Source of the DNA: Candidatus Nomurabacteria bacterium | GTDB lineage: Bacteria > Patescibacteriota > Minisyncoccia > Phycocordibacterales > JAACPR01 | Assembly (NCBI GenBank): GCA_020632215.1 | Contig: JACKFZ010000005.1 | Coordinates: forward strand, 21,128-85,127 | Length of the DNA: 64,000 nt | Reading direction: 5' to 3' | Shown: one piece after another, positions 1 to 40,715 of the stretch | Numbering within the stretch: the first letter of the stretch is position 1 | How the letters are laid out: the number at the start of each line of letters is the position of its first letter | Translations under genes and position numbers: made by a program | Notes under the pieces: generated by a model | Databases searched by the model: none | What the model saw: the letters and a program-made list of their open reading frames with translations, nothing else | What the model was told of the DNA's origin: nothing

Positions 1-1117
1 GAAATACTGCTACTTTTATCGGTGCTAATTTTGGATCAAGTTTCAAAACTACACGAGTTTCGCCATCCATTTCGTCTTCATGATAAGCATCGGAGATAAC
101 AGCCAAGAATAAACGACCAAGACCAACTGAAGTTTCCAAAATCCAAGGAATATACTTTTCATTTTTCTCTTGGTCAAAGTACCTCAAATCTTGTCCGGAA
201 AATTCCATATGCTGAGTTAAGTCGTAATCTGTACGATCGTGGATACCTTCTAGTTCATCAAAACCAAGAGATGGAAAGTTATATTCAATATCCCAGGCAT
301 CTTTTGCATAAAAAACTAGATTTTCATGTTGTTTCCACCTAAGATTTTCTTCCTTAATACCAATAGACTTGTACCAATCCCATCTGTCTTGCTTAATCTT
401 TTCGTAAGCTTCTTTGTTTTCATCTGGTCGAACAAAATATTGTGTATCAGCTTGTTCAAGTTCTCTTGTTCTAAACAGAAAACTTCTTGGTGAAATTTCG
501 TTTCTAAAAGCTTTACCTATCTGAGCAATACCAAATGGAATTTTTGGTTGCATGGTATCTACAATATTTTTAAAATTTAAATAAATTCCCTGACAGGCTT
601 CCCCAGGAAGGTAAACGGGCTCTTCTCCATCAGAAGTAAAATCTCCCAAATTAGATTTTACTAAAAGATTGAAAGCTTTTGCTTCAGTAAAATTCTTCTT
701 ACCACATTTAGGACAAGATATATTATTTCTATTCTCATCAAATAACTTATTTATTTCCTCTTCCGACATTTTTTCATCAGCAGTAACACCTACTTTTGCT
801 AGCTCTTTATCGACTCGAATACGAGCATTACATTCTTTACACTCGGCAAGAGGATCGGAGAATCCTCCAATATGCCCGCTAGCTTCCCAGACTTTTGGAT
901 GTTTAAACATACCAGAATCGATACCAAAATAATTTTCTTTGTCGTAGACATTAGCATTCCACCAAGCTTGCTTTATGTTATTCAAAAGCTCAACACCTCT
1001 GGGTCCAAAATCATAAATACCAGCCAATCCACCATATATCTCAGATCCTTGATAAATAAAGCCTCTCCTTTTGGCCAAGGAGACTATTTTTTCCATCTTA
1101 TCTTCGTTTTTTGACAT
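1..1117 (-). CDS. glyQS: glycyl-tRNA synthetase, alpha2 (archaeal/eukaryote-like) type, N-terminal part (gene runs off window start)
   Basis: Own translation of the minus strand from ATG at 1117: MSKNEDKMEKIVSLAKRRGFIYQGSEIYGGLAGIYDFGPRGVELLNNIKQAWW..., a canonical class II GlyRS N-terminus. Not in the ORF track because it is truncated by the window edge. Confidence 0.75.
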   Translation of the reverse strand, partial: MSKNEDKMEKIVSLAKRRGFIYQGSEIYGGLAGIYDFGPRGVELLNNIKQAWWNANVYDKENYFGIDSGMFKHPKVWEASGHIGGFSDPLAECKECNARIRVDKELAKVGVTADEKMSEEEINKLFDENRNNISCPKCGKKNFTEAKAFNLLVKSNLGDFTSDGEEPVYLPGEACQGIYLNFKNIVDTMQPKIPFGIAQIGKAFRNEISPRSFLFRTRELEQADTQYFVRPDENKEAYEKIKQDRWDWYKSIGIKEENLRWKQHENLVFYAKDAWDIEYNFPSLGFDELEGIHDRTDYDLTQHMEFSGQDLRYFDQEKNEKYIPWILETSVGLGRLFLAVISDAYHEDEMDGETRVVLKLDPKLAPIKVAVF

Positions 1118-2460: not shown

Positions 2461-4383
2461 CTACTCCACCACCTGACTCGTTTCATTAGCACTATTACCA
2501 TATAGTTCTGTTGTAACGTCCTCTGCGACAGTCTCTATATTTCTATCTATGAAAGTATCAAGTGCTGCAAACCTCACATTACTAACCAACACTGGTGCAC
2601 CACCAATTTGACTAGCACTAGGGGTTAAGCCGACTTGGAAACTAACTTTCCTTGTTGGCAAAGTATATCCTGCAAAAGCCGAAACATCACCAAGTTTCCA
2701 CTCAATAATTCGAGAGATTGGATCATAATTGATAGTCTCTCCGCCACCAGTGACAATATTTTTCCACTTAACATAATTTGGCAGACTAGCAGTCAAAACT
2801 CCGTTAGATAAATTATTAGATGTATTATCTAGTTCCAAATCTATTGTGTAAGTTGTCTCTTGATCAACCTTTGGGGGAATAGGTCCAGAATCAGAGGATA
2901 ATCTGGTAGAAAAAGCTTGTAAGTCGATATCAGACACAAATCTAACTCTACTGAAACTTGTAGATTGGACTTCTTCTTGGACTTCTGTTTCCGAAGTTCG
3001 TAGACCGGAAGAGGTAATATTCATAGTAATTTCTGGATTTTTAAAGACAGTACTCCCAGATGCCAAAGGTTTTGTCTGAAAAGTAAAAGCCAAAACACCT
3101 GTATCGCCCGCTTGTATTTCTGTCAGATCTCCTTTAGTACTCTTGTCCCATAAGATAGTATTGTCAGTTGAGCGGTAAAATCCATCAGAAACACGAACGG
3201 AATTTTTATCTAAAACATCACCGTTAAAACTCAAGACTACTTTAGCATTACTAATATTTGAATTTGTATTATTGGCATATCTCAACTCAGCTTGAACAAG
3301 TTGATTGCCTTGCTTCACCACTTCCCCGTCAGTATTTCCGTCGAGAGAAAGACGAACATCAAAGAATGGTCGACTAATCGTCACAGACTTAGGTATAGTG
3401 GTAAAAACAATTCCAATATTATCTTTTACTTCTTCATCTCGAATTCCTGTAGTAAATTTAAAAACTCTCTCCTCTTTGTCCTGACCGAGCAACCTTCCTC
3501 TAATCTGGAATCTTTGTGTTTCTTTTGGTTTCAAAACTTCAAAAAACCATTTGTTATCTCCGGTATAAGGGTCTCTTGTTGTACTCTCTACCTCAAAGCC
3601 AAATGGATATACGGCTTCTAACATCACATTTTGTAAAATTTGATTTGAATTAGAACTAACAGAAACATCAAAAACTAACTCTTGCCCAGCGTTTACTTCT
3701 TTAACATTATCAACTAACAGTCGAATTGGTGAGGATTGCAGGACAACATCAAAAGTTTTTTTCTTTTCAAAAATCGCATTAGATTCAGGTAATCGATATT
3801 CGACAGAAACAATTATTTCTTTATCTTCTCCCTCTTCCCCGAACAGTGCTGCGGCATATGTTCTCTTCACAACAGTTCCAGGTTCTAGGTTACCTAATCC
3901 TTCCCTGATACGAGGTAAATCTGTTCTCAAGTCATCAGCCTGTTTTGTACCATCAGGGTATTCAATGACCAGATCAACTGTTTGAATAACGCCAGCATTA
4001 CTATTTTGCACAACAATGTCTAAGGTCAATTCTTCACCACCACCAATAGAAACTGGTCCTATGACATTGATGTCCACATCATTTCCCGCTACATTCGATG
4101 TTCCATTCAAAAAATTAAAGAACCCATAAACAGCTGCTCCGATGAAAAATAAAAAAGCTATAACAGCAAATACAATGAACCAATTCAATCTCTTCTTCGG
4201 CTTATACTCTGAAATCATTGTGTTCAAATCTCCGTCATCCCAACTTTCATTGGCAGCATACCCTTTTGGTTTCAAATCTTTCCTCGGCTTAAGACCAGCA
4301 TATTTGCTTGGAGAATATAGATTGTCCTGAACTTTCTCCAACTTTGTTCTATCATCTCTATTTGGTGGTGTAATATCTTGCAT
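2461..4383 (-). CDS. large membrane-anchored extracytoplasmic protein, hypothetical
   Basis: ORF track 2461..4443. The first 20 codons overlap a perfect palindrome/terminator; the likely start is MQDITPP at 4383. One TM helix near residue 90, then a roughly 550-aa Ser/Thr/Asn-rich ectodomain. Confidence 0.5.
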   Translation of the reverse strand: MQDITPPNRDDRTKLEKVQDNLYSPSKYAGLKPRKDLKPKGYAANESWDDGDLNTMISEYKPKKRLNWFIVFAVIAFLFFIGAAVYGFFNFLNGTSNVAGNDVDINVIGPVSIGGGEELTLDIVVQNSNAGVIQTVDLVIEYPDGTKQADDLRTDLPRIREGLGNLEPGTVVKRTYAAALFGEEGEDKEIIVSVEYRLPESNAIFEKKKTFDVVLQSSPIRLLVDNVKEVNAGQELVFDVSVSSNSNQILQNVMLEAVYPFGFEVESTTRDPYTGDNKWFFEVLKPKETQRFQIRGRLLGQDKEERVFKFTTGIRDEEVKDNIGIVFTTIPKSVTISRPFFDVRLSLDGNTDGEVVKQGNQLVQAELRYANNTNSNISNAKVVLSFNGDVLDKNSVRVSDGFYRSTDNTILWDKSTKGDLTEIQAGDTGVLAFTFQTKPLASGSTVFKNPEITMNITSSGLRTSETEVQEEVQSTSFSRVRFVSDIDLQAFSTRLSSDSGPIPPKVDQETTYTIDLELDNTSNNLSNGVLTASLPNYVKWKNIVTGGGETINYDPISRIIEWKLGDVSAFAGYTLPTRKVSFQVGLTPSASQIGGAPVLVSNVRFAALDTFIDRNIETVAEDVTTELYGNSANETSQVVE

Positions 4384-4442
4384 TGAAAATATTATATCAG
4401 AAAAAACCCGTCGACCTGCCACGTCGACGTGGCAGGTCGACA

Positions 4443-5030: not shown

Positions 5031-5138
5031 GGTTACCTGTCATCCCAGATTCTAAACCAGAACTTTAGTCAAAAATATATGCTTAAAGTTGTTCGGTTTT
5101 CCAGACTCCGCCTAAGGCGGATCTGGAATGACCTTTTA

Positions 5139-8100
5139 TTATTTTACAATACTAATCTTCACTTCTCCAAAACTTAGACCAACTACTTCTCCATCTTCAT
5201 CAATAAATTTAAATTCTGAAATACCAGCTGTACTTTCTATCTCTTTTCTAAACATGTGAATCAAATGTTCTGCTGATTTTGAAATAGTCAAAGTAATTTT
5301 GTCACTTGGCTTCAAATTCATATTTTTTCTCAGACTTTGGATAGAACGAATAAGCTCCCGAGAATCTCCTTCGTTTTTCAAATCTTCGGTAATATTTGTA
5401 TCTAGTTCAACTTTTTTGTCTAACCCAATATCATAATTTACTTCCTTAACATTGACTTCATCTTTTATAAGATCAATTAGGCTAGCTTCGTAATGAGATA
5501 TCTTCACGTTAGTCTTCATAGACTGAAGTGGTTGTCGAACTTTTATACCAGCCTTTGTCCTAGCTTCCAAAGCAATACTGATGAGGTCTCTAATTTCATA
5601 CATTCTCTGTATTAAAGATTGATCAAAACTAGATTTTTTACCAAATAATTTTGCAAAAAATGAAACACTTTGAACTTGTGGCCAATCTTCTAAGTGAACA
5701 CTTTCTTTTCTACCTCCAATTCTCTGATAAACATCTTCTGCAAGATAAGGAGTAAAAGGTGCCATTATTTTTGACAGTTCTATCAAAACAAATTTCATTG
5801 TTTTCAACGCATTTTCCTTATCACCATCTTCCTTAAATCTATCTCTAGATCTTCTAACATACCAAGTAGAAAGATCATCGATAAAATCCAAGATTGGTCT
5901 CTCTGCCCTATCAAGTTTGTATGCTTCCATATTTTCTGTCACTTCTGCAATTGTCTGAGACAATTTAGCTAAAATCCATTTATCTAAAATATTTTCTGAT
6001 TGACTTGAACCTTCTACTTTCTTATCGGCATAAAGTTTATAGAAGGAGACAACGTTTCTTAAACGTAAAATTATTTTTTTATAAATTTCATCAACTCCTT
6101 TTTCTGAAAAATTTAAGTCTTCTGATTGAACTACTGGTGAAGAAAGCAAATAATATCTTTCTGCATCAACACCATATTTATCAAAAATTAACCAAGGGTC
6201 TGGAAAATTGTTTTTTGATTTTGACATCTTTGATCCATCTTCGGCCAAAATATTCCCTGTTGTCACCACATTTTCAAATGGAACATTGTCAAATAGTATG
6301 GCTGAAAGAATATGTGTGTAATAAAACCATGTTCTTGTCTGAGCAATATACTCAGCTACAAACTGTGCTGGGAAATTTCTTTTGAAATTTTCTTTATTTT
6401 CAAAAGGATAATGTTTTTGTGCAAAAGGCATTGATCCAGACTCAACCCAACAATCAATAACTTCAGAGATTCTAGTAAACTTTTTGTCATTCTCTTCAAA
6501 AGTAATGTCGTCAATATATGGTCGGTGAAAATCTAATTCGTAATTATCGTTATGTGGAATTGTCGCGAAATCATATTTTTCGTAATATCCAGGAACAACG
6601 ACTTCTCCTATTTTTTTTCTCATAGAAACAGTATCTGTAATATCTAAACCATTTTGCATAGCCTTTAACATCCAGACACAATATTCGTGAGTAATGATAA
6701 GAATATTTTTTGCTTGATATTTTTTATCTATTTCATAAATAAAATCGCCACATCTTTTCCTCAAATCCAAAATAGACTCTCCACCTTTTGATGGTTTAGT
6801 CATTTTTTCTTCCAATGATGCGAATTGTTCTCGATATTCTTTGCCTAATTTACCATTAAAATTACCAGCTTGAATCTCTTTTATTCTGTCATCTACTAAA
6901 ACATTACTTTTATCCAAACCTAAGCCCTTAGCTACAATGTCTGCAGTTTGTGTTGTTCTATCCAACGGCGAAGTGATGATCAAATCAATATTTTGATTTT
7001 TGAAAAACTCTATTGAATTTCTGACTTCCTCTTTTCCTTTTTCTGTTAAATCACTTTTGACATCATTAGTTGAACAGACAAAATCATCAACATTGCTTTG
7101 TGCTTCACCATGTCGCATGACGAAATATTTGTTTGTGCTTTTTGTTTTTTCTTTTAATTCATCCAAAGATCCGAGAACTTTTAATTCCATTCCATCTTCA
7201 GATTTCCAAAAAGGCAAAGGTGACGCCCAATATCTATTTCTAGAAATGTTCCAATCTGGTGCACTTTCCATACTTTTTTTGAATCTTCCTTCTTTCAAAT
7301 GTTCTGGCACCCAATTGATCTTATTGTTCAAATCCAAAGCTCTTTGTTTAACACTTTGAATATTTATAAACCAAGCAGAAAGTGCGTTATAGAAAAGAGG
7401 AGTCTCACATCTAAAACAATGGGGGTAGGAGTGAATTATTTTTTCTTTTGAAAAAAGCTTCCCTCTATGTGCTAGATTTTTAATAATCTCGATATCTGTT
7501 GATTGGTGAAAATCTTTTTGTTCTGGTGTTGATTTTGGCTTTACTTTGATACCTGCAAACTCTGTCACTTTGTCTATAAAAGTGCCGTTTTGAGCAACAT
7601 GATAGATCAAAGGTAAATTAACCTTTTTTGCTAAAACCATATCTTCTTCACCATACACTGGTGCAAGATGGACAATTCCAGTTCCCTGCTCTGTGGTGAC
7701 ATAATCCGCATTCCATATTTTCCAAATATTTTCTTTATTCTTCAATGGAACATCTTTGAAGTAGTCAAAAACGGGCAAATAACTTTTACCGATCAGATCT
7801 TCTGTATTAACTTTTTCTCCATTAACATCTTCTTTAAAAACTTTTTCAGCTAAATCTTTAGCGACAATATATTTCCCATCTTCTCTAATAACTTGTATAT
7901 ATTCCAAATCTTTATTTATGGCAGCCGCCACATTTCCTGGTAAAGTCCACGGAGTGGTTGTCCAAGCAAGTAAATATGTTTTCAGTTCACTTGCCCCGTT
8001 TGACGCAGTCGTCGAAGACGACTTTTCGTCATTTACGGGGTCAATAAGTTCAAGCTTAACAGTGACAGAAATATCGGTTATGTCTTTGTAACTGTTGTCC

Positions 8101-8741
8101 ATGGCAATCTCTGAGTTTGCAATAGGAGTCTCACATCTAGGACAATAAGGTAAAACTTTTTCTCCTTCATACAAAAGTCCTTTGTTATGAATTTCTTTCA
8201 GTGCCCACCACACAGATTCTATGTAACTATTCTGCATTGTTAAATATGCACCATCAAAGTCTACCCATCGGGCCATACGTTCAACAGTTCTTTTCCATGC
8301 ATCTACATATTCCAAAACTTGAGCTCGGGCAGTTTCATTAAATTGTTGAATGCCGATTTTTTCAATTTCCTTTTTACCAGAAATTCCTAATTTCTTTTCA
8401 ACAATATTTTCTATTGGTAAACCGTGAGTATCCCAACCCCATCGTCTCTCCACTCTTTTTCCTCGCATTGTCTGGTATCTAGGTACCACATCTTTGATTG
8501 TACTAGCTAAAATATGTCCATGATGTGGTAAGCCAGTAGCAAAAGGAGGTCCATCATAAAAAACATAACTACCATTTGGCGATGGTTTTTTTAAACTTTT
8601 TTCAAAAATTTGATTATCTTGCCAAAATTTCAGTATTTCTTCTTCACGTAAAGCCACTTCAGACTTTTTTTGGCTATTTGAGTCAGTCATAGGACATACA
8701 ATACGATGAAATAAAGGTTTTTTCAAGACACTACCCCGCAC
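5139..8741 (-). CDS. ileS: isoleucyl-tRNA synthetase (type 2) with an inserted histidine-phosphatase domain
   Basis: HIGH motif PFATGLPHHGHIL, KMSKS motif, DWNISRNRYW and CWVESGSMPF blocks. 1200 aa, about 190 aa longer than usual because of an insertion at residues ~537-733 carrying RHGEAQSN / SPLDRTTQTA / ITHE. The true start is probably M18 (MTDSNSQKK). Confidence 0.9.
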   Translation of the reverse strand: MRGSVLKKPLFHRIVCPMTDSNSQKKSEVALREEEILKFWQDNQIFEKSLKKPSPNGSYVFYDGPPFATGLPHHGHILASTIKDVVPRYQTMRGKRVERRWGWDTHGLPIENIVEKKLGISGKKEIEKIGIQQFNETARAQVLEYVDAWKRTVERMARWVDFDGAYLTMQNSYIESVWWALKEIHNKGLLYEGEKVLPYCPRCETPIANSEIAMDNSYKDITDISVTVKLELIDPVNDEKSSSTTASNGASELKTYLLAWTTTPWTLPGNVAAAINKDLEYIQVIREDGKYIVAKDLAEKVFKEDVNGEKVNTEDLIGKSYLPVFDYFKDVPLKNKENIWKIWNADYVTTEQGTGIVHLAPVYGEEDMVLAKKVNLPLIYHVAQNGTFIDKVTEFAGIKVKPKSTPEQKDFHQSTDIEIIKNLAHRGKLFSKEKIIHSYPHCFRCETPLFYNALSAWFINIQSVKQRALDLNNKINWVPEHLKEGRFKKSMESAPDWNISRNRYWASPLPFWKSEDGMELKVLGSLDELKEKTKSTNKYFVMRHGEAQSNVDDFVCSTNDVKSDLTEKGKEEVRNSIEFFKNQNIDLIITSPLDRTTQTADIVAKGLGLDKSNVLVDDRIKEIQAGNFNGKLGKEYREQFASLEEKMTKPSKGGESILDLRKRCGDFIYEIDKKYQAKNILIITHEYCVWMLKAMQNGLDITDTVSMRKKIGEVVVPGYYEKYDFATIPHNDNYELDFHRPYIDDITFEENDKKFTRISEVIDCWVESGSMPFAQKHYPFENKENFKRNFPAQFVAEYIAQTRTWFYYTHILSAILFDNVPFENVVTTGNILAEDGSKMSKSKNNFPDPWLIFDKYGVDAERYYLLSSPVVQSEDLNFSEKGVDEIYKKIILRLRNVVSFYKLYADKKVEGSSQSENILDKWILAKLSQTIAEVTENMEAYKLDRAERPILDFIDDLSTWYVRRSRDRFKEDGDKENALKTMKFVLIELSKIMAPFTPYLAEDVYQRIGGRKESVHLEDWPQVQSVSFFAKLFGKKSSFDQSLIQRMYEIRDLISIALEARTKAGIKVRQPLQSMKTNVKISHYEASLIDLIKDEVNVKEVNYDIGLDKKVELDTNITEDLKNEGDSRELIRSIQSLRKNMNLKPSDKITLTISKSAEHLIHMFRKEIESTAGISEFKFIDEDGEVVGLSFGEVKISIVK

Positions 8742-8802: not shown

Positions 8803-9063
8803 CTATTTTTTGTGTGCGTATAGGGCTTGTCTCATCCAATCATCGTTACCGAATTGGACATCAGCTTGTCGGACCATCTTTTTGGCTCGACGTTTGTCGA
8901 TGGAATATTTTTCAACTCCATCAGGTAGTTCAGCCACCTTATCAATCTTGGTAGCATGCTGACCTTCAATCATTTCAGCACGATACCAGTGATTCTCTAG
9001 CTGGAAGAAGACTGAAATGGAAAGTTTGCCATTCAAGTCTTCAACTTTTTTGAATGCTTTCAT
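8803..9063 (-). CDS. hypothetical protein (GC-rich island)
   Basis: 86-aa ORF with strong AAAGGAGG SD; local GC is well above the genome background. Confidence 0.35.
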   Translation of the reverse strand: MKAFKKVEDLNGKLSISVFFQLENHWYRAEMIEGQHATKIDKVAELPDGVEKYSIDKRRAKKMVRQADVQFGNDDWMRQALYAHKK

Positions 9064-9291: not shown

Positions 9292-9729
9292 TCAACCCAA
9301 AAGGGAGGCGCTGGATCCTTCAACAATTTCATACTCGAAATGTTCTTGAAGAAGAATTGGGTACCTAGCCGCAGCGAGTAAGACCGCTTCCCAGTGAGGA
9401 GATCGATCATCGTCTTCAAGAATCGGTTGTCGAGAAAATTCTTCAAAGTTACCGATTACATGAGGAAGATTCTCGAACACATGACCTTCTTGTAAGATAC
9501 TGAGAACTAACTCTTGATCTGTTGGGTTGCTTGATGGCCAAGAATCAACAGCCCCAGTAAAAAGAATGTAATTCGCGGCATCACGAATTGAGCATTCTTC
9601 GTCTATTGCAGCCCACATGAGAAGGATGATGATATCCATATCATCAAAGTGCTCGTGCCGATCTCTGAACAGAGTCTCTACGGCATAGAAGACGCTGTCA
9701 GGAATATCAGGATGCTTATTGTTGTTCAT
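9292..9729 (-). CDS. hypothetical protein (GC-rich island)
   Basis: 145-aa ORF in the same GC-rich island. Confidence 0.35.
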   Translation of the reverse strand: MNNNKHPDIPDSVFYAVETLFRDRHEHFDDMDIIILLMWAAIDEECSIRDAANYILFTGAVDSWPSSNPTDQELVLSILQEGHVFENLPHVIGNFEEFSRQPILEDDDRSPHWEAVLLAAARYPILLQEHFEYEIVEGSSASLLG

Positions 9730-9850: not shown

Positions 9851-10132
9851 CTACATCCAAAGACGCACTCTCTCAATCTCTTGATAACGTTCCCACGATT
9901 GGTCTCCGAAAATGTGTCGATGTGAATACAAAGCATTCCACGTTTGCACCAAAAAGAACTGGAGCAGAACTTTGGCCATCGCATCCTCACCGTCCACGGC
10001 CAACTGGAACAAGTGTCCGCATGTATGTTCCTCGTCTTTCAAAGGACCAAACCGTTGGACAAAATCTTGAACATAATTCCCCCTTTGTTTGAGCAGGAGA
10101 TCATAGCAAAAAGAAGCTGATGGTTCCTTCAT
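9851..10132 (-). CDS. hypothetical protein (GC-rich island)
   Basis: 93-aa ORF in the same GC-rich island. Confidence 0.3.
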   Translation of the reverse strand: MKEPSASFCYDLLLKQRGNYVQDFVQRFGPLKDEEHTCGHLFQLAVDGEDAMAKVLLQFFLVQTWNALYSHRHIFGDQSWERYQEIERVRLWM

Positions 10133-12085: not shown

Positions 12086-12147
12086 TGATGAGTATATAGT
12101 ATGTAGAATGTAGAATGTAGTCAATGGATGAGTATGTAGAATGTAGT

Positions 12148-12242
<95 letters not shown>

Positions 12243-12364
12243 AAAGATTATACTCATTGTCTATCTAATCACTAACCACCAGAAACTGATCACTAATATT
12301 GAAACAAAAAGATGAGGCGGTCGCGTCGTGGACGCGAGCCGCCAATAAGAGAGAGCTTCGAAAG

Positions 12365-12835
12365 TCAGGGCTCGGTACTGCTCGGTCGACCTTCGTCTTC
12401 GTATTTGGTCTTACGCAGAATCAGGCCGTCACAGATCAGCAAGTTGCCGTGATTAACGATATCTTCGATATCCTCCGCCGTAAGTGCTAGTTGCCAATGG
12501 CGGAGAACCATTTGTTTCGGGTCCCATTCTGGATAGTTTCCCCGAGGGGCTTTTTCCGAAATTTCGACCCAAGCGCCGAGTGATAGCTCGCGGAGGACTT
12601 TCCGAAGATCTTCCGGCTTTTCGCTCATTTGAGGAGCGCCCGCCAGAGCCACGAAGGACAAGTTGTCCTCTCTCAAGGCTTGCGAGACGGTATCCCGCAC
12701 TTGATCTTCCATAAAAGAATTGTCGTTGTATTTTATATTCGCAATGACTATCGCCACAATCGTGAAGGTGACTGCCATGATAACAAGTCCCTCCACCAGT
12801 GTAAGTCCAGAGTTTGTTTTTTTGTTTCCTTTCAT
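12365..12835 (-). CDS. type IV pilin-like / pseudopilin protein
   Basis: N-terminus MKGNKKTNSG|LTLVEGLVIMAVTFTIVAIV is a class III (prepilin) signal with Gly-1 and Glu+5. GC-rich ORF; its leader is shared with the ORF at 21128..21451. Confidence 0.5.
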   Translation of the reverse strand: MKGNKKTNSGLTLVEGLVIMAVTFTIVAIVIANIKYNDNSFMEDQVRDTVSQALREDNLSFVALAGAPQMSEKPEDLRKVLRELSLGAWVEISEKAPRGNYPEWDPKQMVLRHWQLALTAEDIEDIVNHGNLLICDGLILRKTKYEDEGRPSSTEP

Positions 12836-13091
12836 AACTGAATGCGCCTCCTTTCAAGCGCGAAGGGTTGATTGATGAAAAACAGGTTCCGAAAGACTTT
12901 ATGATATTTTTAAATTTATTGCAATCATTGAAAATAATCGCCTAAAGTTGTTCGGGATTTCAGACTCCGTCTAAAACGGATCCGGAATAACAACGATTAT
13001 ATAAAATTTAACCAGATCCTGACCGCGTCTGACGTAGCAAGAAGACAATACTAATTCTAATTACTGACAACTGTCTTCTGATCACTAATCA

Positions 13092-18118: not shown

Positions 18119-18541
18119 ATGGCAGAAGACACTAATTTTCATATTGTACCACAACAAATTGTTGGTATTGGTAACCAAGTGAATGGACACAATCAAGTAG
18201 GAATCATCCTTCACCATCACAGAGATTACCTTGAATTGCTCGGTATCAACGCTAGAAAATTGGAGGCTCAAGAATTATTCTTCTTCACGAGAAGTCTTGG
18301 AGAAACAACCTTCCCGCATGTACTGCTGGCCAACAGCATGATGAAAATTCATGTTCGCATTTGGCTTCCAAGGCACGATGAGACCAAAATGCTCATGGAT
18401 GGTCAGATCTCTGTCCAAGGTAAAGTAACGGCAAAGATGGCTCCATCAGAAATGGTCCTGTGTACCCTTGATAGCACACCGGTCAAAATACCAGATTGGA
18501 TTCGAGACATCATCGGTAGAGACACACCAGACGATATCTGA
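18119..18541 (+). CDS. hypothetical protein (GC-rich island)
   Basis: 140-aa ORF followed by the terminator cccacggaccgcttcggcgagttcgtgttttt. Confidence 0.35.
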   Translation: MAEDTNFHIVPQQIVGIGNQVNGHNQVGIILHHHRDYLELLGINARKLEAQELFFFTRSLGETTFPHVLLANSMMKIHVRIWLPRHDETKMLMDGQISVQGKVTAKMAPSEMVLCTLDSTPVKIPDWIRDIIGRDTPDDI

Positions 18542-18653
18542 TTTCACAATTTCTTCAACCCCACGGACCGCTTCGGCGAGTTCGTGTTTTTATTTGACAA
18601 CTATTTGAAAGATAATATTCTTAGAAATAGAAGAACTCTAACCCGCACCGAAA

Positions 18654-19007
18654 ATGGACATAGCACTAAGACTCATCCAGTTCAATGAAAACCACCCTTT
18701 AAAACCAGATGGAAAAGTAAGGGCTCTTGTCTTTATCTCGACAGGAGGAGGCATGGATCTTTCTGTAGAAGAAGTCAAAAAAATGGCAGATGAAATTAAG
18801 TTTGCCTTCCCTGACTGTCATATTGATGAAGAAAGTATGCATGTTGGTATGACGACCCCGAACTTCTCAGGGCCAAATGAACCAGATCCTTTCTTTTGTT
18901 ATCGAGGTGTGTACACCTATATCACCATAAACCGAGACAGGAGACCAGAAGGATGGACAGTCTCTGTCAAAGGAAGAAATTCCCCATATGAACGGCTGGA
19001 AATCTAA
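18654..19007 (+). CDS. hypothetical protein (GC-rich island)
   Basis: 117-aa ORF followed by a second identical copy of the same terminator. Confidence 0.35.
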   Translation: MDIALRLIQFNENHPLKPDGKVRALVFISTGGGMDLSVEEVKKMADEIKFAFPDCHIDEESMHVGMTTPNFSGPNEPDPFFCYRGVYTYITINRDRRPEGWTVSVKGRNSPYERLEI

Positions 19008-19510
19008 CCATTTCCTCGCCCCCCCACGGACCGCTTCGGCGAGTTCGTGTTTTTTATTTCATATTTTCTTCACACTTTTTAAGTTTTCTTTATTAAAACT
19101 TTAACTTTTTTTGTATGTTTTTTGAGAATAGATTTGTTAGAATTTTCAATAGCCCAGAACCAAAGCATAGCTTGGTTCTGGATTAGTCCCGAACCGAACA
19201 AAGTTCTGGTTCGGGAGTGGTAAGCGGTAAGCCCCCACCCAAAAGGGCGGGAATTTTAATAAAATTTTTTGAGATTTATTTAGATAAAAAGATATTTTGT
19301 GAAAATAGCACCCCAAACATGTACCTTATGCCTGTTTTTTGTTTAAAATTATCGTCTTCCTAAACACAAGCACTTGGTGTGCTAAGTGCTTGTGTTTTTC
19401 AGAATCTTAGTAAATTACAGCTAAATCTAACCAGATTCTGAATGTCACAAAACCCCGCACTATTACAGCGCGGGGCTTCGTTCTTTCAGGAAGATGTGGT
19501 TTTTGAAAAT

Positions 19511-19933: not shown

Positions 19934-20121
19934 AATTTTTCTTTATATATAAATAGAAGCATTTATACGTAACAGTAGCAATAAGTTACTTTAAATTTGA
20001 GGTGTTGTCAAACAGATTCTGAAAAACACAAGCACTTGGTGTGCTAAGTGTTCGAGTTCAGAATGATGGAAAATGCCTAAAGTTGTTCGGGATTCCAGAC
20101 CAAGTCTGGAATGACGATTAT

Positions 20122-20866: not shown

Positions 20867-20937
20867 ATTTTTACTAATTTATCCATTTTTAAAAGCCCTT
20901 TCGGGCCTTTTGATACGTACATATTACAGGGTTAAAA

Positions 20938-21020
20938 AGAGAATGTCAACCACGTAAAGAACGTAAAAAGATTTTCTAACGAAAATCTTCACGTTCCACG
21001 TGGCAGGCCACGATTCTGTC
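20938..21020. repeat. about 80-bp palindromic REP/MITE-like element, copy A
   Basis: gagaatgtcaaccacgtaaagaacgtaaaaagattttctaacgaaaatcttcacgttccacgtggcaggccacgattctg. Near-identical copies at 21530..21612 and 22908..22990. Confidence 0.8.
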
Positions 21021-21127
21021 CCAACAATGAGAGAAACACTGTCAAATATATAAAAACAAAAAGAGTTGCCCACCGAGCTTGCGTGTCGGCGGGGCTTAAG
21101 GGAAAAAAGTATGGTGAGAATATCAAT

Positions 21128-21451
21128 TCAATCTATTCTCTCCCAATAATGCGGAAAAATCATTTGCAACACCAGTGGCCATTTTTCCTTTTGAGCGCTG
21201 GTGCAAAAGACTGTCCCCAGGAAGGAGTAGAGAATGAACAGGCAAACATTCAAATAGAACACGCCCTTCATCACATACTCGACCCGTTGGGTTGTTAATT
21301 CGTCTTCCATGGTAAAGACGGTGAGCAAGATTATTGTTCCCACCAACATGGCGAGGTAGGTCACAACGAAAATCACGAATTGTTTGAGGAGGAACGCACA
21401 GAAGTCCCACATTTCATCCATGATTTCATATATCAGATCCAGTGTTTTCAT
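21128..21451 (-). CDS. small membrane protein, hypothetical (GC-rich)
   Basis: 107-aa ORF with two TM helices; shares a 5' leader with the pilin-like gene at 12365..12835. Confidence 0.4.
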   Translation of the reverse strand: MKTLDLIYEIMDEMWDFCAFLLKQFVIFVVTYLAMLVGTIILLTVFTMEDELTTQRVEYVMKGVFYLNVCLFILYSFLGTVFCTSAQKEKWPLVLQMIFPHYWERID

Positions 21452-21529
21452 AATCTTATGCGCCTCCTTTCAAGCGCAGGGGTTTTGTTAAAACGAACGG
21501 TTCCTAAGAAATAACCTACTATTTTGAAA

Positions 21530-21612
21530 GAGAATGTCAACCACATAAAGAACGTAAAAAGATTTTCTTCGAAAATCTTCACGTTCCACGTGGCAGGTCA
21601 CGATTCTGGTCC
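21530..21612. repeat. REP/MITE-like palindromic element, copy B
   Basis: Near-identical to copy A. Confidence 0.8.
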
Positions 21613-21634
21613 AGATTTCGTACTTAGCGTTTCG

Positions 21635-22435
21635 CTACTTTATCTCGTAAGTAACATAAACCCTAATAGTAATTGTGTTTTCACCAGTTGGTAGACTTGG
21701 AGCAGCAGAACTTTTTACAGCAACATCTCCTCCCATTCCGTAAGCTTCAGGGTAAGGGTAAAATCCGCTATCTTCACTAAAACTAACAACCTTTTTTATC
21801 TTCACTCCCAGATCTTTTGCCAATTGTTCTGCTTTTGCTCTAGCATCTTGAACAGCCTTTGTTCTAGCCTCTTCTCTCAAATCATCCTCATCGTCAATTG
21901 TGAATTGAAGTCCACTAATATTTGTCACCCCTGTTGTTCCAATGCCAGATAGAATCTCTCCCGCCTTGTTTGTCTCTCTAACTTTGACTTCTACACTTTG
22001 ATTGACATCGTATCCAATAACGACTGGTTCTTGAGGAGGACAGTTGTATCCACGACAATCTCCATAACTATATTTTGGAGAAACATAGTAGTTAGTTGTC
22101 TTTATATCCTTCTCATCAATGTTGTTATCTTTCAAATAGTCTAAAGCCTTATTCATACTTTCTGCAGAAAGTTGCTGTGCCGCTTCTACTGACTCTGCAC
22201 TAGCATTGACTGAGAATGTAAATTTTGCCACGTCAGGTGCAGCTACCACTTCCCCTTCTCCTTGAACAGAAACGGTATTGGCCGCATAAGTGTCGTCAGT
22301 GGCATCCCACATCGCTACCTCAGTAATAATTTTTGATATTAAAAATAGTGACAAAAGTCCAACTGCAATAGTTGTCACAAATAGAGTTGTATTTACTGCA
22401 AAACTTCTATCTTCTAAAAATCTTTTAACGCACAT
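21635..22435 (-). CDS. SIMPL-domain (BP26/OMP28-like, DUF541) protein
   Basis: N-terminal TM segment, then ...TVSVQGEGEVVAAPDVAKFTFSV... and a C-terminal repeat characteristic of SIMPL. Confidence 0.55.
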   Translation of the reverse strand: MCVKRFLEDRSFAVNTTLFVTTIAVGLLSLFLISKIITEVAMWDATDDTYAANTVSVQGEGEVVAAPDVAKFTFSVNASAESVEAAQQLSAESMNKALDYLKDNNIDEKDIKTTNYYVSPKYSYGDCRGYNCPPQEPVVIGYDVNQSVEVKVRETNKAGEILSGIGTTGVTNISGLQFTIDDEDDLREEARTKAVQDARAKAEQLAKDLGVKIKKVVSFSEDSGFYPYPEAYGMGGDVAVKSSAAPSLPTGENTITIRVYVTYEIK

Positions 22436-22549
22436 AATTTACAAAGTTAATATTAATAGATTCATCATACAACAACTATATATAAAAGCGAAAGGGCTCC
22501 GTGGTGGGAGCCCTATTTAATGATTGAAAGCGGATTTGGTTCAATCCTG

Positions 22550-22846
22550 TCACGGATGAACTAGCTCCACAATCTTGAAAACGATGAGTCTGTCGCTTGA
22601 TGAGACTTCCTCGAGTCTTGCAACACCGGAAGGTGCGTAGAGTCGAAGTATAAGGGATTTCACCGCACCAACCGAAGGTGCATAACGGTGAGATTCATAA
22701 GCAATCTCCCCATCTCGGTTGAGAAGAGTGCCCCCATTACGACAGACTGACACAACAACGGATTTTTCAGATTCCCGTATCTGGACATGGAGACAGTCCC
22801 CAAATTTCAGTGAAGTTGCTTGACCATTAAAATCGAAAAGTTGCAT
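22550..22846 (-). CDS. hypothetical protein (GC-rich)
   Basis: 98-aa ORF with an AAGGAG SD. Confidence 0.35.
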   Translation of the reverse strand: MQLFDFNGQATSLKFGDCLHVQIRESEKSVVVSVCRNGGTLLNRDGEIAYESHRYAPSVGAVKSLILRLYAPSGVARLEEVSSSDRLIVFKIVELVHP

Positions 22847-22907
22847 AGCTCAATCTCCTTTTGTTTAGGTTAAAATCGGTTCCAATGGCGATACTACATT
22901 TTGGGAA

Positions 22908-22990
22908 AGTGGAAGTCAACCACGTAAAGAACGTAAAAATATTTTCTTCGAAAATATTCACGTTCCACGTGGCGGGCCACACTTTCTCCT
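22908..22990. repeat. REP/MITE-like palindromic element, copy C
   Basis: ggaagtcaaccacgtaaagaacgtaaaaatattttcttcgaaaatattcacgttccacgtggcgggccac. Confidence 0.8.
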
Positions 22991-26286: not shown

Positions 26287-26355
26287 ATTAGTTGGTAGTT
26301 AATAATTGATAATTAAAAGTTTTATCACGTGGCCGGCGAAGCCGGCTTTACGTGA

Positions 26356-28962
26356 TTATTGACAACTATCGCAAACAAATCTTTCTTGTGGATCTTCTGG
26401 ACCCTTAACATCATTACTGGCAGTTACAGGCACTTTAACGCCGGGAGTTACTGGACTTTCAACACTTGGTGCTGGTTCTGCTGTTGTATGTTCTTTTTCT
26501 TCTACATTGTGTGAAATTTGTGATAGTTTCTGTCGCAAAGCACCGAATCCAACTTTTCCAAGAGAAGCTCCTTTGTTTACCTTGGTAGTAGATTGCTCTG
26601 CAGTATGGCGTGGCTTCATATGTAAGTAGTAAGTAGATTTCAAACCCTTTCTCCAAGCTGTAGTATAAATATTCATAATCTCTTCATTGTCTCTTGTTTC
26701 TAAATACATATTTCTAGAAAGAGCTTGATCGACCCATTTCTGAGCTCTAGCAGCAACTTCGACATAAGCGTAAGGCGAGGTTGTAAATGCTGTTTTATAA
26801 ATTTCTTTTAGCTCTGCTGGTATTTCTTCGATATTTGCAATGTCTCCTTGAGCTTCGACAATTTTTTCTTTTACTTTCTCCCAAAGATTAATTTTCTTTA
26901 GATCAGCAACGAGGTTGGTGTTGATGTCTAAATATTTTCCAGACATTTTATTTCGTGAAAATACTTGAGCAAATCTTGCATCAATACCAGGTGTTGTAGC
27001 TGCCACCAAACCAATGTTTGCATTTGGAGCAACAGCCATCAAAGTTGCGTTTCTAATCCCCTTCTTAACTTTTTCTCGTAACACGTCCCAGTTTAGTCCT
27101 TTGTGTTTGCTTTCTTTATCAATATCAAGTGTAATACCTCTTTCTTGTTCTAATTTTGCGATACTATCAATTGGCACTTTTCCTTTTGACCACATTGATC
27201 CTGCGTAGTTTGGATAACTTCCTCTCTCTTCTGCTAATGACGCACTTTCGTCAATTGCCATATAACTAATAAATTCAAAAATTCTATCTGCAAAATCATA
27301 AGCTTGTGGACTATCATATGAAAATCCCATTCTTTCTGTAGCATCTGCAAATCCCATCACTCCAAGACCGATCGCTCTGTTTTGTTTGTCAGCATTTTCT
27401 GCTTCTTTGATAGGTAACACATTGATATCAATGAGGTTATCTAGATGTCTTGTGGCAATTCTAACTGTTTGTTCAAGTCTTTGCCAATCAACTTCCTTAT
27501 CTTTGATATGATTTGCCAAATTAATAGATCCTAAATTACAAACAGCGATGTTATCTTTGTCCTGAGGAAGGCAAATTTCTGTACATAAGTTAGACATATG
27601 AATTGTGCCAGTATTGTTATTCAAAGCTCGCAAGTTTATAGAGTCCTTCCATGTCAACCATGGGTGCGAAGTACCTTGCAAAGAAACTAAAATTTGTCTG
27701 TACTGCTCCTTAGCTGGAACTTTTTTGTAAGTTCTAAGTTCCCCCTTTTCTGCTTTTTCAATATACTCTGCATATCTTCGACTAAAAGCCGCTCCATAAA
27801 GCTCGTTCAGATCAGGAGTTTCTTTAGGATCAAACATATACCATTCATCGTCATCTTGAACTCTCTTCATAAATTCATCAGAAAGATAGCAAGCTGTATT
27901 AGCGGTTCTCATTCTCAAATGCTCATCTCCTGAGTTAAATCTCCATTCGATAAACTCTGGAAAGTCTGTGTGCCAGTTTTCCATATAGAAACAAAGAGCA
28001 CCTTTTTTCTTTCCTCCTCTTTGAATTGCTCGAATTGCAACATCAATAATTTTTGCAAAAGGAGTTGGTCCAGAAGAAACTGTGTTAGAAGCAGCCAGTG
28101 GAGAACCGCTGGCTCGCAACTTTGTAATAGAAGCACCGATTCCTCCCGAAGCTTTGGAGAGCATCATAATGTCTGATACCGACTTCGCAATGTGTTCCAT
28201 ATCATCATGAATTTCCAAAAGAAAACAGTTGGACATTGCAGGTCTAGGAGTTCCCGAATTTAAATTTGTTGACCCAGCAGCTAAATAATCAAGTTTAGAC
28301 ATTTTGTCGTAAAACTTTGTAGCATATTCTGTTGGATTTTCTTCATTATACGAAAGACCCATAGCAACTCTCATAAAAAGATATTGTGGAGTCTCACATG
28401 GAGTTTGATTTTGATCTTTCAAAGCATATCGATAAAACAATCCTGATAGTCCAGCATAATTAAAAAGTTCATCACGGTTTGTATCTATCACTTTCGAAAG
28501 TTCTTCTAGATCAAACTTGTCGATCATCTTTCGATCAAGTAAACCTATTTCGACTTTTTCTTTTATATAATCAACAAATCTTTTTTGGTGAAGTCTTTGT
28601 GGAGCGGTAGGATCATTTCCATCGTAATCACCAAGAACTTTTTTATAAATTGTCTTTAGAAGAATTCGTTTTGCAACGACATCATAGTCTGGATCATCTT
28701 TGATATTTTGCAACGCAGCACTTATTGTTGCCTCATCTAATTCGTTTTCTGTAACACCATCGTAAAGTGTGAGCTGAGTTTCAGTAGCAATCTGTGTAAC
28801 CATTTGGATTTTATTTTCTAATCCATAACATGCCCTTTCGACAGAGCGATTGATACGATCGGCGTCAAATTGTACTTTGGTTCCGTCTCTTTTTGTGACG
28901 GTTAGCTCAAGTGGTGTCATAACTTTTTCAAAAATTACTATTAATTGTGATGATCCAGTCAA
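26356..28962 (-). CDS. nrdA: ribonucleotide reductase class I alpha subunit
   Basis: N-terminal ATP-cone (VTKRDGTKVQFDADRINRSVERA), catalytic NLCTEI block, C-terminal CDSCQ tail. Confidence 0.9.
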   Translation of the reverse strand: MTGSSQLIVIFEKVMTPLELTVTKRDGTKVQFDADRINRSVERACYGLENKIQMVTQIATETQLTLYDGVTENELDEATISAALQNIKDDPDYDVVAKRILLKTIYKKVLGDYDGNDPTAPQRLHQKRFVDYIKEKVEIGLLDRKMIDKFDLEELSKVIDTNRDELFNYAGLSGLFYRYALKDQNQTPCETPQYLFMRVAMGLSYNEENPTEYATKFYDKMSKLDYLAAGSTNLNSGTPRPAMSNCFLLEIHDDMEHIAKSVSDIMMLSKASGGIGASITKLRASGSPLAASNTVSSGPTPFAKIIDVAIRAIQRGGKKKGALCFYMENWHTDFPEFIEWRFNSGDEHLRMRTANTACYLSDEFMKRVQDDDEWYMFDPKETPDLNELYGAAFSRRYAEYIEKAEKGELRTYKKVPAKEQYRQILVSLQGTSHPWLTWKDSINLRALNNNTGTIHMSNLCTEICLPQDKDNIAVCNLGSINLANHIKDKEVDWQRLEQTVRIATRHLDNLIDINVLPIKEAENADKQNRAIGLGVMGFADATERMGFSYDSPQAYDFADRIFEFISYMAIDESASLAEERGSYPNYAGSMWSKGKVPIDSIAKLEQERGITLDIDKESKHKGLNWDVLREKVKKGIRNATLMAVAPNANIGLVAATTPGIDARFAQVFSRNKMSGKYLDINTNLVADLKKINLWEKVKEKIVEAQGDIANIEEIPAELKEIYKTAFTTSPYAYVEVAARAQKWVDQALSRNMYLETRDNEEIMNIYTTAWRKGLKSTYYLHMKPRHTAEQSTTKVNKGASLGKVGFGALRQKLSQISHNVEEKEHTTAEPAPSVESPVTPGVKVPVTASNDVKGPEDPQERFVCDSCQ

Positions 28963-34051: not shown

Positions 34052-34705
34052 TTAATCCGACGGCTGGTTTCTTGTTGATAGAAGTTCGCTAACACTGAGT
34101 GATTCGCGAAAATCTTCCCATCCCAACATACTTTCGTAGTATCGGATGGCCGTTTCTGCCTCCTCCTGCGTATCGAAGTGGCAAGCCTCGATCTCAGCCA
34201 AGAGAAAAGATCGTGTTCTGTCTAAGGTGGACACCTCGTAAATCACAATCTCGATCTTTTGTCTGCCTATTCCAGGAATATAACGAATAAGTCCTTCGCC
34301 TAACACATCAATACTTTCACATTGGTCTCCTAAAATGCCAACTTCTTCAAAGAAAGCTAAGATTGAGCTCTTATAACTATCGTCAACAGGGAACTCCACC
34401 TCTCTGCGCGATAATCTTTCATGTTTACGTTTAAGCCCAATCCTACCTTTCACAGGACTCCCTACCCTATATCTCAAAGTATGAACTCCCTCTCCTTTGT
34501 AAACAAGAAGATAGTGATCCACCCCGTGAAATTTAACAGGTCGAATGCTAGGAAATTCATCGCAGAGAAATTGATCAAGTCCCTCTATCGTAAATCGAGC
34601 CCTTGGAAAATTGTACTTCTGCTCAATCTCAAAGCCGTTATGAGAAATTTCTGATGTTTCGACAACCTCAAGAATATCAAGAAAATCTGTTTGTTCGTCA
34701 CTCAT
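34052..34705 (-). CDS. CYTH-domain protein (GC-rich)
   Basis: FEIEQKY (ExExK) plus the TLRYRVGSPVKGRIGLKRKHERLSRREVEF pattern; second CYTH protein in the window. Confidence 0.45.
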   Translation of the reverse strand: MSDEQTDFLDILEVVETSEISHNGFEIEQKYNFPRARFTIEGLDQFLCDEFPSIRPVKFHGVDHYLLVYKGEGVHTLRYRVGSPVKGRIGLKRKHERLSRREVEFPVDDSYKSSILAFFEEVGILGDQCESIDVLGEGLIRYIPGIGRQKIEIVIYEVSTLDRTRSFLLAEIEACHFDTQEEAETAIRYYESMLGWEDFRESLSVSELLSTRNQPSD

Positions 34706-36359: not shown

Positions 36360-36651
36360 ATAATGTGATGAGAATACTACTAATTGTTGACTAAAAAGTC
36401 TAGGACTTTTTTAAAATAGGTTCGTGCAATTCCCTCCCTGTTTGGGTGGGCCCGCCCAACTGAATGACCTGCCAGAATGAATCTGTCGGGCTGGCTTCAG
36501 TCATTCGGGCGGGGGCTTACCGCTTGCTATTTTTATTATAAAAAAACTATTCTCAAAAAACATATAAAAAGAATTAAAATCTTTTTAAATTAAAGGTAAA
36601 TTTTTATAAAAATTATTAGAAACTTTTTAGTATAACTTTATAAATTATTCA

Positions 36652-40059: not shown

Positions 40060-40715
40060 AATTAATATTGTAGGCAGTAGGTTAACATATGGCTTTAATA
40101 AAGGCAATAGATAAAAAGAGGTTGGGGTCGCCTGATGGACCCCTCCAGAAAGGGAGCATGCTCTTTTCGTGTTATTTATTTTGATTACCCCCATCTGTTG
40201 ATTTCGGCTTTTTCTTTTTCCGGCCAATTTGACCATGGTATTTCCCACCAGGTAAACTTTTGTCAGGATTGTGGTTACCACCCCTAACCTTTGGCGGTCT
40301 TTCGTGTCGTGATTTTTTCATAAAGTTTCCTTTCTTTCGACTCCACTATTTCTATAACACTCGTAAGAATTAAAGCAAGAGATAAAAAAAGAAGCGCCTC
40401 GTGTTTCGGAGTGGGCGCTCTTTCCTCCCTTAAAATTCACTTCTTGGTTTTGGGGCCTTTTTGCATGGCTTGGTTTTTTTCTTGTTTCGCAGCTCGTTTG
40501 GCAGCAGCCCTCTTCAGACGCTCCTGCCTTTTTTTGCATCCCGATCTTCCGTCCTTTGCCATCAGGAATATGCCTTCCTAGGTTAGGGTTAATTTCTGTT
40601 TCTATACTGCACTTTATACTTTTATAGTTTTATTGTAAAGCCGATGTTCTAGAACGTAGTATCTGGTACGCAGAATTTATGTTTCTTCATTTTTCTACAT
40701 TCTACATACTAAATT

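Follow-up and report, generated by a model that had tools for sequence, protein, structure and literature searches.

A candidate family of palindromic repeats with a long form ending in a predicted promoter box near secE-nusG of a Candidatus Nomurabacteria genome

Overview

A 64,000-nucleotide stretch of a Candidatus Nomurabacteria (Patescibacteria, Paceibacteria) genome (assembly GCA_020632215.1, contig JACKFZ010000005.1, positions 21,128 to 85,127; referred to here as the window) contains three near-identical copies of a long hairpin repeat next to the secE-nusG genes. On the minus strand, the coding strand of all neighboring genes, each hairpin terminates in a TTGACA or TTGACT -35 box. Two diverged hairpins of the same plan lie elsewhere in the window, one inserted in frame in the gene for isoleucyl-tRNA synthetase (IleRS) and one after the gene for the alpha subunit of ribonucleotide reductase (RNR). 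The reading that we somewhat favor is that these hairpins belong to one family of palindromic repeats, specific to the species, whose members have inserted at new sites and whose long form is a stem-loop-plus-promoter cassette. The repeat connects the promoter of an essential operon, two orphan genes and an in-frame insertion in an aminoacyl-tRNA synthetase.

The genomes of Patescibacteria are very small. To our knowledge, little is known about how new genes are gained and expressed in this group or about the repeats that its genomes tolerate. If the family is genome-wide and mobile, it would be a tractable promoter-delivering palindromic element in an uncultivated lineage and a marker of recent gene gain; if it is only local, it would be a clean case of promoter reuse. 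The consequence for annotation is the same either way: the SIMPL gene between the repeats belongs to the conserved secE neighborhood, and the repeat marks predicted promoters, not the 3' ends of genes. An initial annotation of the window, made from its letters and open reading frames (ORFs), had described the three copies as a genome-specific element of the repetitive extragenic palindromic (REP) or miniature inverted-repeat transposable element (MITE) type that brackets a small accessory island. That description was partly right. The repeat, the hairpin and the lineage specificity were borne out, but the accessory island, the placement of the repeat as a 3' tail, strict membership in the REP class and target-site duplications were not.

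Sequence and fold of the three long copies

The long copies, each of about 83 nt, are located on the minus strand at 20938 to 21020 (copy 1), 21530 to 21612 (copy 2) and 22908 to 22990 (copy 3), all in direct orientation. The 20-mer core TTCACGTTCCACGTGGCAGG had three matches with up to three mismatches, against 0.00 expected, so the copies listed in the initial annotation are real and far beyond chance. Copies 1 and 2 share 94 to 95% identity across 83 to 87 nt, and copy 3 is 92 to 95% identical over a 59- to 67-nt core and 89% identical over 76 nt. A covariance model (CM) built from the three long copies, designated R1 and run on the window without filters, scored them at 107, 110.6 and 100 bits, respectively.

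All three fold as long imperfect hairpins, with z scores of -4.4 to -6.3 on the minus strand and -2.0 to -7.3 on the plus strand. The folding energy of copy 2 was -31.4 kcal/mol on the minus strand versus -22.7 kcal/mol on the plus strand. Copy 3 differs from copies 1 and 2 by compensatory substitutions in the inner stem (G-C to U-A) and by an outer stem re-paired as GAAAGUG/CACUUUC. Differences between the long copies include compensatory and wobble-compatible ones, indicating that the structure has been maintained. The fold had been described as lacking a T-run, and this was confirmed: the long copies have no canonical U-tract, their tail being UUCUCUUU, and a terminator scan reported none of them except one inner sub-stem within copy 3. 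Comparison with Rfam gave matches at chance level only, the best one over a copy being ALIL (17.4 bits against a gathering score of 50).

Promoter boxes in the hairpin arm

A predicted -10 box follows the -35 box after 16 to 17 nt at all three copies. The 3' arm of copy 1, on the minus strand, holds the -35 box of a predicted sigma-70-type secE-nusG promoter (20921 to 20949, minus strand; TTGACA, 17 nt, TAATAT), which had 10 of 12 matches in the promoter scan. The same arm of copy 2 holds the -35 box of a promoter-like site (21513 to 21540, minus strand; TTGACA, 16 nt, TAGGTT) for an orphan ORF of 107 amino acids (aa). Copy 3 is located upstream of a 98-aa orphan ORF, for which the promoter-like site at 22891 to 22919 (minus strand) reads TTGACT, 17 nt, TAGTAT. 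The boxes at copies 1 and 3 were found by the scan, and those at copy 2 by reading the sequence and by a pattern scan. The distance from the repeat to the start codon was 62 to 79 nt for secE and the two orphans, and the repeat spans positions -72 to -154, -79 to -161 and -62 to -144 relative to the three start codons. A stem-loop and a predicted sigma-70-type promoter are thereby combined in one short intergenic repeat at all three copies.

Copies 1, 2 and 3 have in common the hairpin, the -35 box and the spacer's first half. Copies 2 and 3 additionally share the second half of the spacer, the -10 box and the beginning of the 5' untranslated region (UTR), whereas copy 1 has the ancestral secE sequence past the middle of the spacer. 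Each copy had been placed just 3' of a minus-strand gene. Because the 3' arm of the hairpin contains the -35 box, the copies are not simple gene 3' tails, and the informative relation is that to the downstream gene. As far as sequence can tell, the arrangement best fits a long form that carries, or has fused to, a -35 box serving secE-nusG and the two orphans.

The position of the secE promoter is widely kept. Among 80 relatives (loci L008 to L087, upstream of secE), which formed the comparison set for the secE neighborhood, 74 have the pattern TTGAC[AT]-16..18-TAnnnT at the equivalent place. A leader hairpin, AAAAGGCCCGAAAGGGCTTTT, lies outside the repeat at 20891 to 20911 (minus strand), between the -10 box and the secE ATG, and is kept in relatives. 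In 74 of the 80 Paceibacteria, the secE promoter is followed about 5 to 25 nt on by a small GC hairpin with a T-run and then by the start codon. This terminator-like hairpin inside the secE-nusG leader may be an attenuator.

Gene neighborhood and comparison with the closest relative

The gene between copies 2 and 3 (21635 to 22435, minus strand) encodes a SIMPL (DUF541) protein (Pfam E = 4e-55). It lies directly upstream of secE-nusG-rplK in 62 of the 80 relatives, and in 48 of these 62 the SIMPL-secE spacer is 65 to 200 nt long. SIMPL is therefore part of a conserved neighborhood and not accessory. What had been called an accessory island reduces to the 107-aa and 98-aa ORFs, which are the only lineage-specific orphans in it.

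The best relatives of NusG were metagenome-assembled genomes of Paceibacterota, Zambryskibacteria and Nomurabacteria. The closest relative located was a Logan contig (L096), whose SIMPL protein is 72% identical to that of the window and whose gene order is TspO-DsbA-SIMPL-secE-nusG-rplK. The DsbA-SIMPL spacer is 744 nt in the window versus 125 nt in L096, and the SIMPL-secE spacer is 769 nt versus 161 nt. In the alignment, the window-specific DNA amounts to 686 nt (23179 to 22494) and 690 nt (21639 to 20950), and homology restarts exactly at 20949, the first base of the TTGACA of copy 1. The secE promoter of L096 is TTGACT-TTACTTTCTAATCCCTG-TATTAT, preceded immediately by a short canonical terminator; its spacer TTACTTTCTAATCCCTG is related to the spacer TTCTCTTTTTAACCCTG of the window.

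The long hairpin was absent from both the SIMPL-secE and the DsbA-SIMPL spacer of L096. The 107-aa orphan is missing between its SIMPL and secE genes, and the 98-aa orphan between its DsbA and SIMPL genes. Since L096 lacks the long hairpin and both small ORFs, these are gains of the window lineage. The proposal that the repeat marks insertion points holds insofar as copies 2 and 3 are located at the 5' edge of DNA absent from L096, but it does not extend to an accessory island. Duplicated cassettes analogous to the window repeats were sought in the insertion-bearing relatives, and none was found.

The 107-aa orphan (H6775_02530 in NCBI; 21128 to 21451, minus strand) has two hydrophobic segments, its own ribosome-binding site (RBS) and a terminator-like hairpin at 21050 to 21092. 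The 98-aa orphan (22550 to 22846, minus strand) also has its own RBS, with a terminator at 22493 to 22514. The GC content at third codon positions (GC3) was 0.60 and 0.38 in the two orphans, respectively, versus 0.18 to 0.29 in the neighboring core genes. No homologues of either orphan were found among 5.8 billion proteins, and neither had a match in Pfam.

Diverged members in IleRS and after RNR alpha

A diverged member was found on the minus strand within the IleRS gene at 7989 to 8039 (CM match at 7971 to 8060). It scored 33.2 bits with model R1 and forms a three-stem nested hairpin (z = -5.3). This member is a 51-nt in-frame insertion of 17 codons (PVNDEKSSSTTASNGAS), located immediately before the WTTTPW motif, and the ORF is intact. 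The 17-codon insert is missing in 10 of 12 relatives and in a solved IleRS structure, and the identical IleRS protein is encoded by three independent contigs. A palindromic in-frame insert is therefore present in a conserved coding gene that it does not disrupt, which argues for real insertion events.

The IleRS gene itself (5139 to 8741, minus strand) encodes a protein of about 1,183 to 1,200 aa with a histidine phosphatase (His_Phos_1) domain in the middle of the synthetase. This fusion seems to be clade-wide, because relatives align over nearly the full length.

The second diverged member, TCACGTAAAGCCGGCTTCGCCGGCCACGTGA, is 31 nt long and is located at 26325 to 26355 on the minus strand (CM match at 26301 to 26375; 27.7 bits; z = -4.0), between RNR alpha, whose stop codon it directly follows, and RNR beta. 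The closest relative with the RNR junction (L013) has the same C-terminus and a spacer of only 24 nt, with no hairpin. The hairpin is thus lacking in relatives at the IleRS, RNR, SIMPL-secE and DsbA-SIMPL sites. The highest background score of model R1 was 16.3 bits when 1.16 Mb of relatives were searched with default filters, and 18.4 bits when 82 kb were searched unfiltered. Confinement of the copies to the 2-kb stretch around SIMPL had been named as the sign of a simple local triplication; the matches at 7971 to 8060 and 26301 to 26375 show that the family, as the CM defines it, extends beyond that stretch. A second CM, built from all five members, detected no further member in the window or in the relatives. 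A match obtained with nhmmer at 43389 to 43437 was rejected as a family member, since it forms no hairpin (z = +0.7).

The five members share an outer stem xCACGT/ACGTGx, an AAA bulge opposite a 1-nt bulge and a C-TTC-G loop, along with one or two further stems; the inner stems differ in sequence. In the alignment of the five sequences, 20 of 36 pairs change on both sides, and 92.6% of the paired cells are complementary, versus 76% in shuffled and about 45% in slid alignments. From this common plan we infer that all five hairpins share a common descent. The long copies and the two short members are oppositely oriented relative to transcription.

The initial annotation had also pointed to a related perfect palindrome at 4408 to 4442 (minus strand), after recO. 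The palindrome is real, and the GC-rich 12-mer GACCTGCCACGT occurs both in it and in copies 1 and 2; with up to one mismatch, this 12-mer has four sites, against 0.02 expected. Its CM score was only 10.7 bits, which is not significant. A chance origin of the shared 12-mer, raised by a multiple-testing estimate, was dropped because a GC-rich 12-mer is rare in a window of 36% GC. On the strength of the shared motif, the palindrome may be a relative of the repeat family. Its perfect 15-bp stem is followed on the minus strand by T6, and it is therefore an ordinary intrinsic terminator.

Distribution outside the window

Exact searches for the core returned no matches in one genome per GTDB species (21 specified bases), five matches in JGI metagenomes (19 bases), all attributable to chance and inside GC-rich coding DNA, and one chance match in IMG/VR (17 bases). 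The 2-kb region gave no blastn match to INPHARED phages or PLSDB plasmids. Searches of the 80 relatives with the repeat, by blastn-short and nhmmer, yielded chance-level matches only, and both CMs gave nothing significant there, with no family member in 1.17 Mb. A profile of the open translation frame of the repeat, intended to pick up copies annotated as spurious ORFs, had no match among 1.84 billion proteins. The description of the repeat as genome-specific agrees with the outcome of these scans of GTDB species, JGI, IMG/VR, INPHARED, PLSDB and the relatives.

Interpretation and alternatives

If the five hairpins form an inserting family, it would spread, or would once have spread, as a non-autonomous palindromic element comparable to MITEs, REPINs or Rickettsia palindromic elements; the copies would probably be made via a single-stranded hairpin, by an enzyme whose gene lies elsewhere in the genome. 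The long form would be a combined insulator or terminator stem-loop and predicted sigma-70 promoter. It would supply new orphan genes with a ready promoter and shield them from read-through. The direct repeats would then result from cassette copying or recombination accompanying orphan insertion, as has been proposed for stem-loop cassettes of T4-type phages.

Several observations weigh against this reading. The three long copies all lie within 2 kb, which a purely local duplication would fit as well. No presence/absence polymorphism was seen across five independent samples of the species, in which exact look-ups of SecE, SIMPL, DsbA and IleRS gave the identical arrangement everywhere. No transposase, integrase or REP-associated tyrosine transposase (RAYT) was found among the 30 window ORFs scanned with Pfam, which are about half of all ORFs in the window. 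Target-site duplications, the search for which had been suggested as a check, were not consistent: the long copies and the IleRS insert have no direct repeat in common at their borders, and only at the RNR copy does TAA occur on both sides, a match that AT-rich DNA could produce by chance. The -35 box of copy 1 may be ancestral or element-borne, as homology breaks off midway through the spacer. Covariation was scored on an alignment that had been fitted to the model. The IleRS and RNR members were detected by structure and sequence together, not by sequence alone: by sequence only, the IleRS member had an nhmmer E of 7.7 and a local-alignment p of about 0.005, and the RNR member was not significant.

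A local duplication of a regulatory cassette without transposition, in which the stem-loop and secE promoter were copied twice when the orphans were inserted and the IleRS and RNR hairpins are unrelated look-alikes, is a serious but less probable alternative. Three near-identical copies in direct orientation inside 2 kb are what it predicts, and deletion of one 591-nt unit would give a SIMPL-secE spacer of 178 nt, within the 65 to 200 nt of 48 of 62 relatives. Regulatory modules are mosaic elsewhere in the window (a 33-nt terminator with a -35 region, and a 5'UTR shared by the 107-aa orphan and a 156-aa orphan, both described below), no transposase was found in the scanned ORFs and no target-site duplication was identified, and the similarity of the two diverged members by sequence only is weak. 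What keeps it plausible is the clustering of the long copies and the mainly structural nature of the similarity of the distant members. Such a duplication leaves unexplained, however, that the CM scores of the IleRS and RNR members lie 9 to 17 bits above every hairpin in the 1.16 Mb of relatives, and that both share the particular AAA bulges, the opposite 1-nt bulge and the TTC loop. Nor is there a regulatory rationale for an in-frame palindrome inside an essential gene. In addition, copy 3 has no second copy across its insert, so recombination between two cassettes alone cannot explain that site.

A structured RNA element acting on transcripts as a terminator, 3'-end stabilizer or RNase site, and selected at gene ends instead of spreading as selfish DNA, appears unlikely. 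The copy differences do keep pairing on the transcribed strand through G-U wobbles and break it on the other strand; copy 2 lies 22 nt past the SIMPL stop codon, the RNR member directly follows a stop codon, and relatives have ordinary terminator hairpins at the SIMPL-secE position. The long copies nevertheless lack a canonical U-tract and a match in Rfam, and DsbA and the 107-aa ORF already have their own terminator-like hairpins, ahead of copies 3 and 1, respectively. One member lies within the IleRS frame, where termination would harm, and the long and short members are opposite in orientation to transcription. An operator bound by a dimeric transcription factor as the common regulator of secE-nusG and both orphans, centered about 65 nt upstream of the predicted starts, is very improbable, even though the inner inverted repeats are perfect (AAGATTTTC-N3-GAAAATCTT), CACGTG/ACGT motifs are present, and all three copies occupy the same position upstream of the -35 box. 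An 83-nt element with three nested stems far exceeds the usual length of an operator, copy 3 alters both half-sites symmetrically, as expected of a stem and not of a protein site, and the IleRS and RNR hairpins, with different inner stems, are located away from promoters. Least credible of all are attC-like sites of an integron-like array with the orphans as cassettes. Imperfect palindromes of attC-like size in direct orientation do flank small, unrelated ORFs of the same orientation here. Against this, their ends lack RYYYAAC/GTTRRRY cores (the nearest, TGTCAAC and GTTGACA, have one non-conforming base each), no integrase was found among the ORFs scanned, the ORFs have their own predicted promoters and terminators, and a conserved core gene, SIMPL, lies between the repeats.

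Relation to known repeats and cassettes

The inserting repeat family that we favor resembles several known systems in part. The promoter-early stem-loops (PeSLs) of T4-type phages (Arbiol et al. 2010, PMC2839356; Comeau et al. 2014, PMC4122927) likewise pair an intergenic stem-loop with a strong sigma-70-like promoter, whose -35 box the stem-loop can overlap (PMC2839356). In both cases, direct repeats flank small ORFans that have their own expression signals and are absent from a close relative. The window repeat differs in being located in a cellular (Patescibacteria) chromosome beside an essential operon and not in a phage hyperplastic region. Its stem-loop is far longer, consists of three nested stems and lacks a GGGG/CCCC motif. 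Relatives of the hairpin in the window are also promoter-less, one of them being intragenic, and recombination products or mini-circles are known for the phages only. The phage work states that no such plasticity mechanism is known in cellular organisms (PMC2839356). That the long repeat is a cellular counterpart of PeSLs, a recombination-prone cassette for acquiring, expressing and swapping orphans between core genes in a reduced Patescibacteria genome, would be an attractive analogy, but we regard it as doubtful. On such a reading, the hairpin family may itself be targeted to TTGACA -35 boxes or may create them.

Putative mobile promoters have been defined as sequences that, within one genome, lie at -150 to -50 from the start codons of non-paralogous genes and share 80% identity or more over 50 nt or more (Matus-Garcia, Nijveen, van Passel 2012; PMC3575422). 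The window repeat falls within this operational definition (PMC3575422), with 89 to 95% identity and unrelated downstream proteins. As that definition is worded, the class rests on similarity alone and implies no structure, whereas the window repeat is a long hairpin ending in a -35 box.

Like the Rickettsia palindromic elements, the window family consists of lineage-specific palindromes that are both intergenic and in frame in housekeeping genes (PMC10969869). The Rickettsia elements are about 100 to 150 bp long and have dozens of genic insertions (PMC10969869), whereas the window has a single 51-nt genic copy in 64 kb, the 17-codon insert that would occupy a loop of IleRS; the likeness is one of kind. 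Correia elements and promoter-bearing MITEs share with the window repeat the character of short non-coding inverted repeats with sigma-70-like boxes immediately upstream of genes (PMC10969869). The window repeat differs from them in that no target-site duplication (TA or other), terminal inverted repeats separate from the hairpin or integration host factor site was seen, and no related insertion sequence is known.

REPs and REPINs are imperfect palindromes that are specific to a species, lie for the most part outside genes and keep their pairing through complementary mutations (PMC2817692), and in these respects the window family is similar. They are recognized by a GT(A/G)G head 5' of the palindrome and by a RAYT gene between two inverted REPs (PMC2817692). 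In the window family, GTGG is found in copies 1 and 3, 4 nt ahead of the outer stem; copy 2 has GTGA, and the head is absent from the IleRS and RNR members. The family thus has no consistent head, no RAYT was found in the 30 ORFs scanned, and one copy is intragenic. REPs typically number in the hundreds per genome, whereas the window holds five members, three of them clustered in 2 kb. The assignment to a REP family can be kept in the sense that at least five members occur in 64 kb, but membership in the strict RAYT-associated sense is not supported, given the inconsistent GT(A/G)G head and the lack of a Y1 transposase among the 30 ORFs.

The two orphans resemble phage morons, being promoter-ORF-terminator units of deviant composition that separate genes found side by side in relatives. 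Shared flanking repeats are no part of the definition of a moron, and the likeness concerns the cargo genes only.

GC-rich orphan genes and other repeats in the window

About 14 small ORFs in the window have a GC3 of 0.37 to 0.60, compared with 0.16 to 0.30 in core genes. For 13 of these, a Pfam search gave no match: 1283 to 1597, 1780 to 2280, 8803 to 9063, 9292 to 9729, 9851 to 10132, 12365 to 12835, 18119 to 18541, 18654 to 19007, 21128 to 21451, 22550 to 22846, 34052 to 34705, 54504 to 54839 and 56945 to 57433. Most have their own predicted TTGACA-type promoter, RBS and terminator, and they are wedged, moron-like, between genes that are adjacent in relatives. A promoter-like pattern of -35 box, -10 box and GAAC precedes 9 of the 14, versus 1 of about 55 core genes. 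Paralogy was considered as the cause of the shared flanks and rejected, as the orphans have no mutual similarity.

An exact 33-nt terminator hairpin occurs at 18559 to 18591 and at 19022 to 19054, after two unrelated plus-strand orphans of 140 and 117 aa. The sequence TTGACAACTATTT comes 3 nt after the first copy and is found ahead of the 140-aa ORF as well. Together, the 33-nt terminator and TTGACAACTATTT make up a second stem-loop-plus-promoter module. Another adjacent pair of orphans has a terminator in common. The 156-aa and 107-aa orphans, although unrelated, have 5'UTRs with about 60 nt of homology, including the exact 20-mer GCGCTTGAAAGGAGGCGCAT (12842 to 12861 and 21458 to 21477), which could pair across the RBS.

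The gap between ArgRS and IleRS is 30 to 120 nt in 7 of 13 relatives versus 1.6 kb in the window, where it holds three orphans. The nusG-rplK spacer is 188 nt in the window versus 51 nt in L096. The shared orphan modules, the ArgRS-IleRS orphans, this longer spacer and the extra hairpin families described below indicate that the genome has gained hairpin repeats and self-contained orphan genes at many intergenic sites.

A second hairpin family, GTCATTCCAGA...TCTGGAAnCCCGAACAACTTTAGGC, is located at 5072 to 5132 (after IleRS), 12931 to 12991 (before the 156-aa orphan) and 20075 to 20111 (after nusG). It also occurs in L096 at 3638 to 3667, where 30 nt are 97% identical, versus about 80% for core genes. 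A third palindromic repeat, AAACACAAGCACTTGGTGTGCTAAGTGCTTGTGTTT, is found at 19355 to 19407 and 20014 to 20066, on either side of rplK, and the copy upstream of rplK is directly followed by TTGACA. A 66-nt inverted repeat with 79% complementarity links 19078 to 19143, downstream of the 117-aa orphan, and 36535 to 36600, near tRNA-His.

Arrays of 7-nt units (TCAGCGG/TCAGCTA and TAGTATG/TAGAATG-type) are located in intergenic DNA beside the terminators of orphan genes, at 12133 to 12248, 1159 to 1204 and 2342 to 2387, and also at 12091 to 12131, 40684 to 40745 and 62550 to 62599. Similar GATATCAGATATCAGAC runs follow SIMPL and rplK in L096. Toward the end of the window, a stand-alone 86-aa GIY-YIG protein is encoded at 63099 to 63359, with a 4-nt overlap with a SpoU methylase gene, and a weak RelE/ParE/HigB-like toxin ORF lies nearby at 63632 to 63889.

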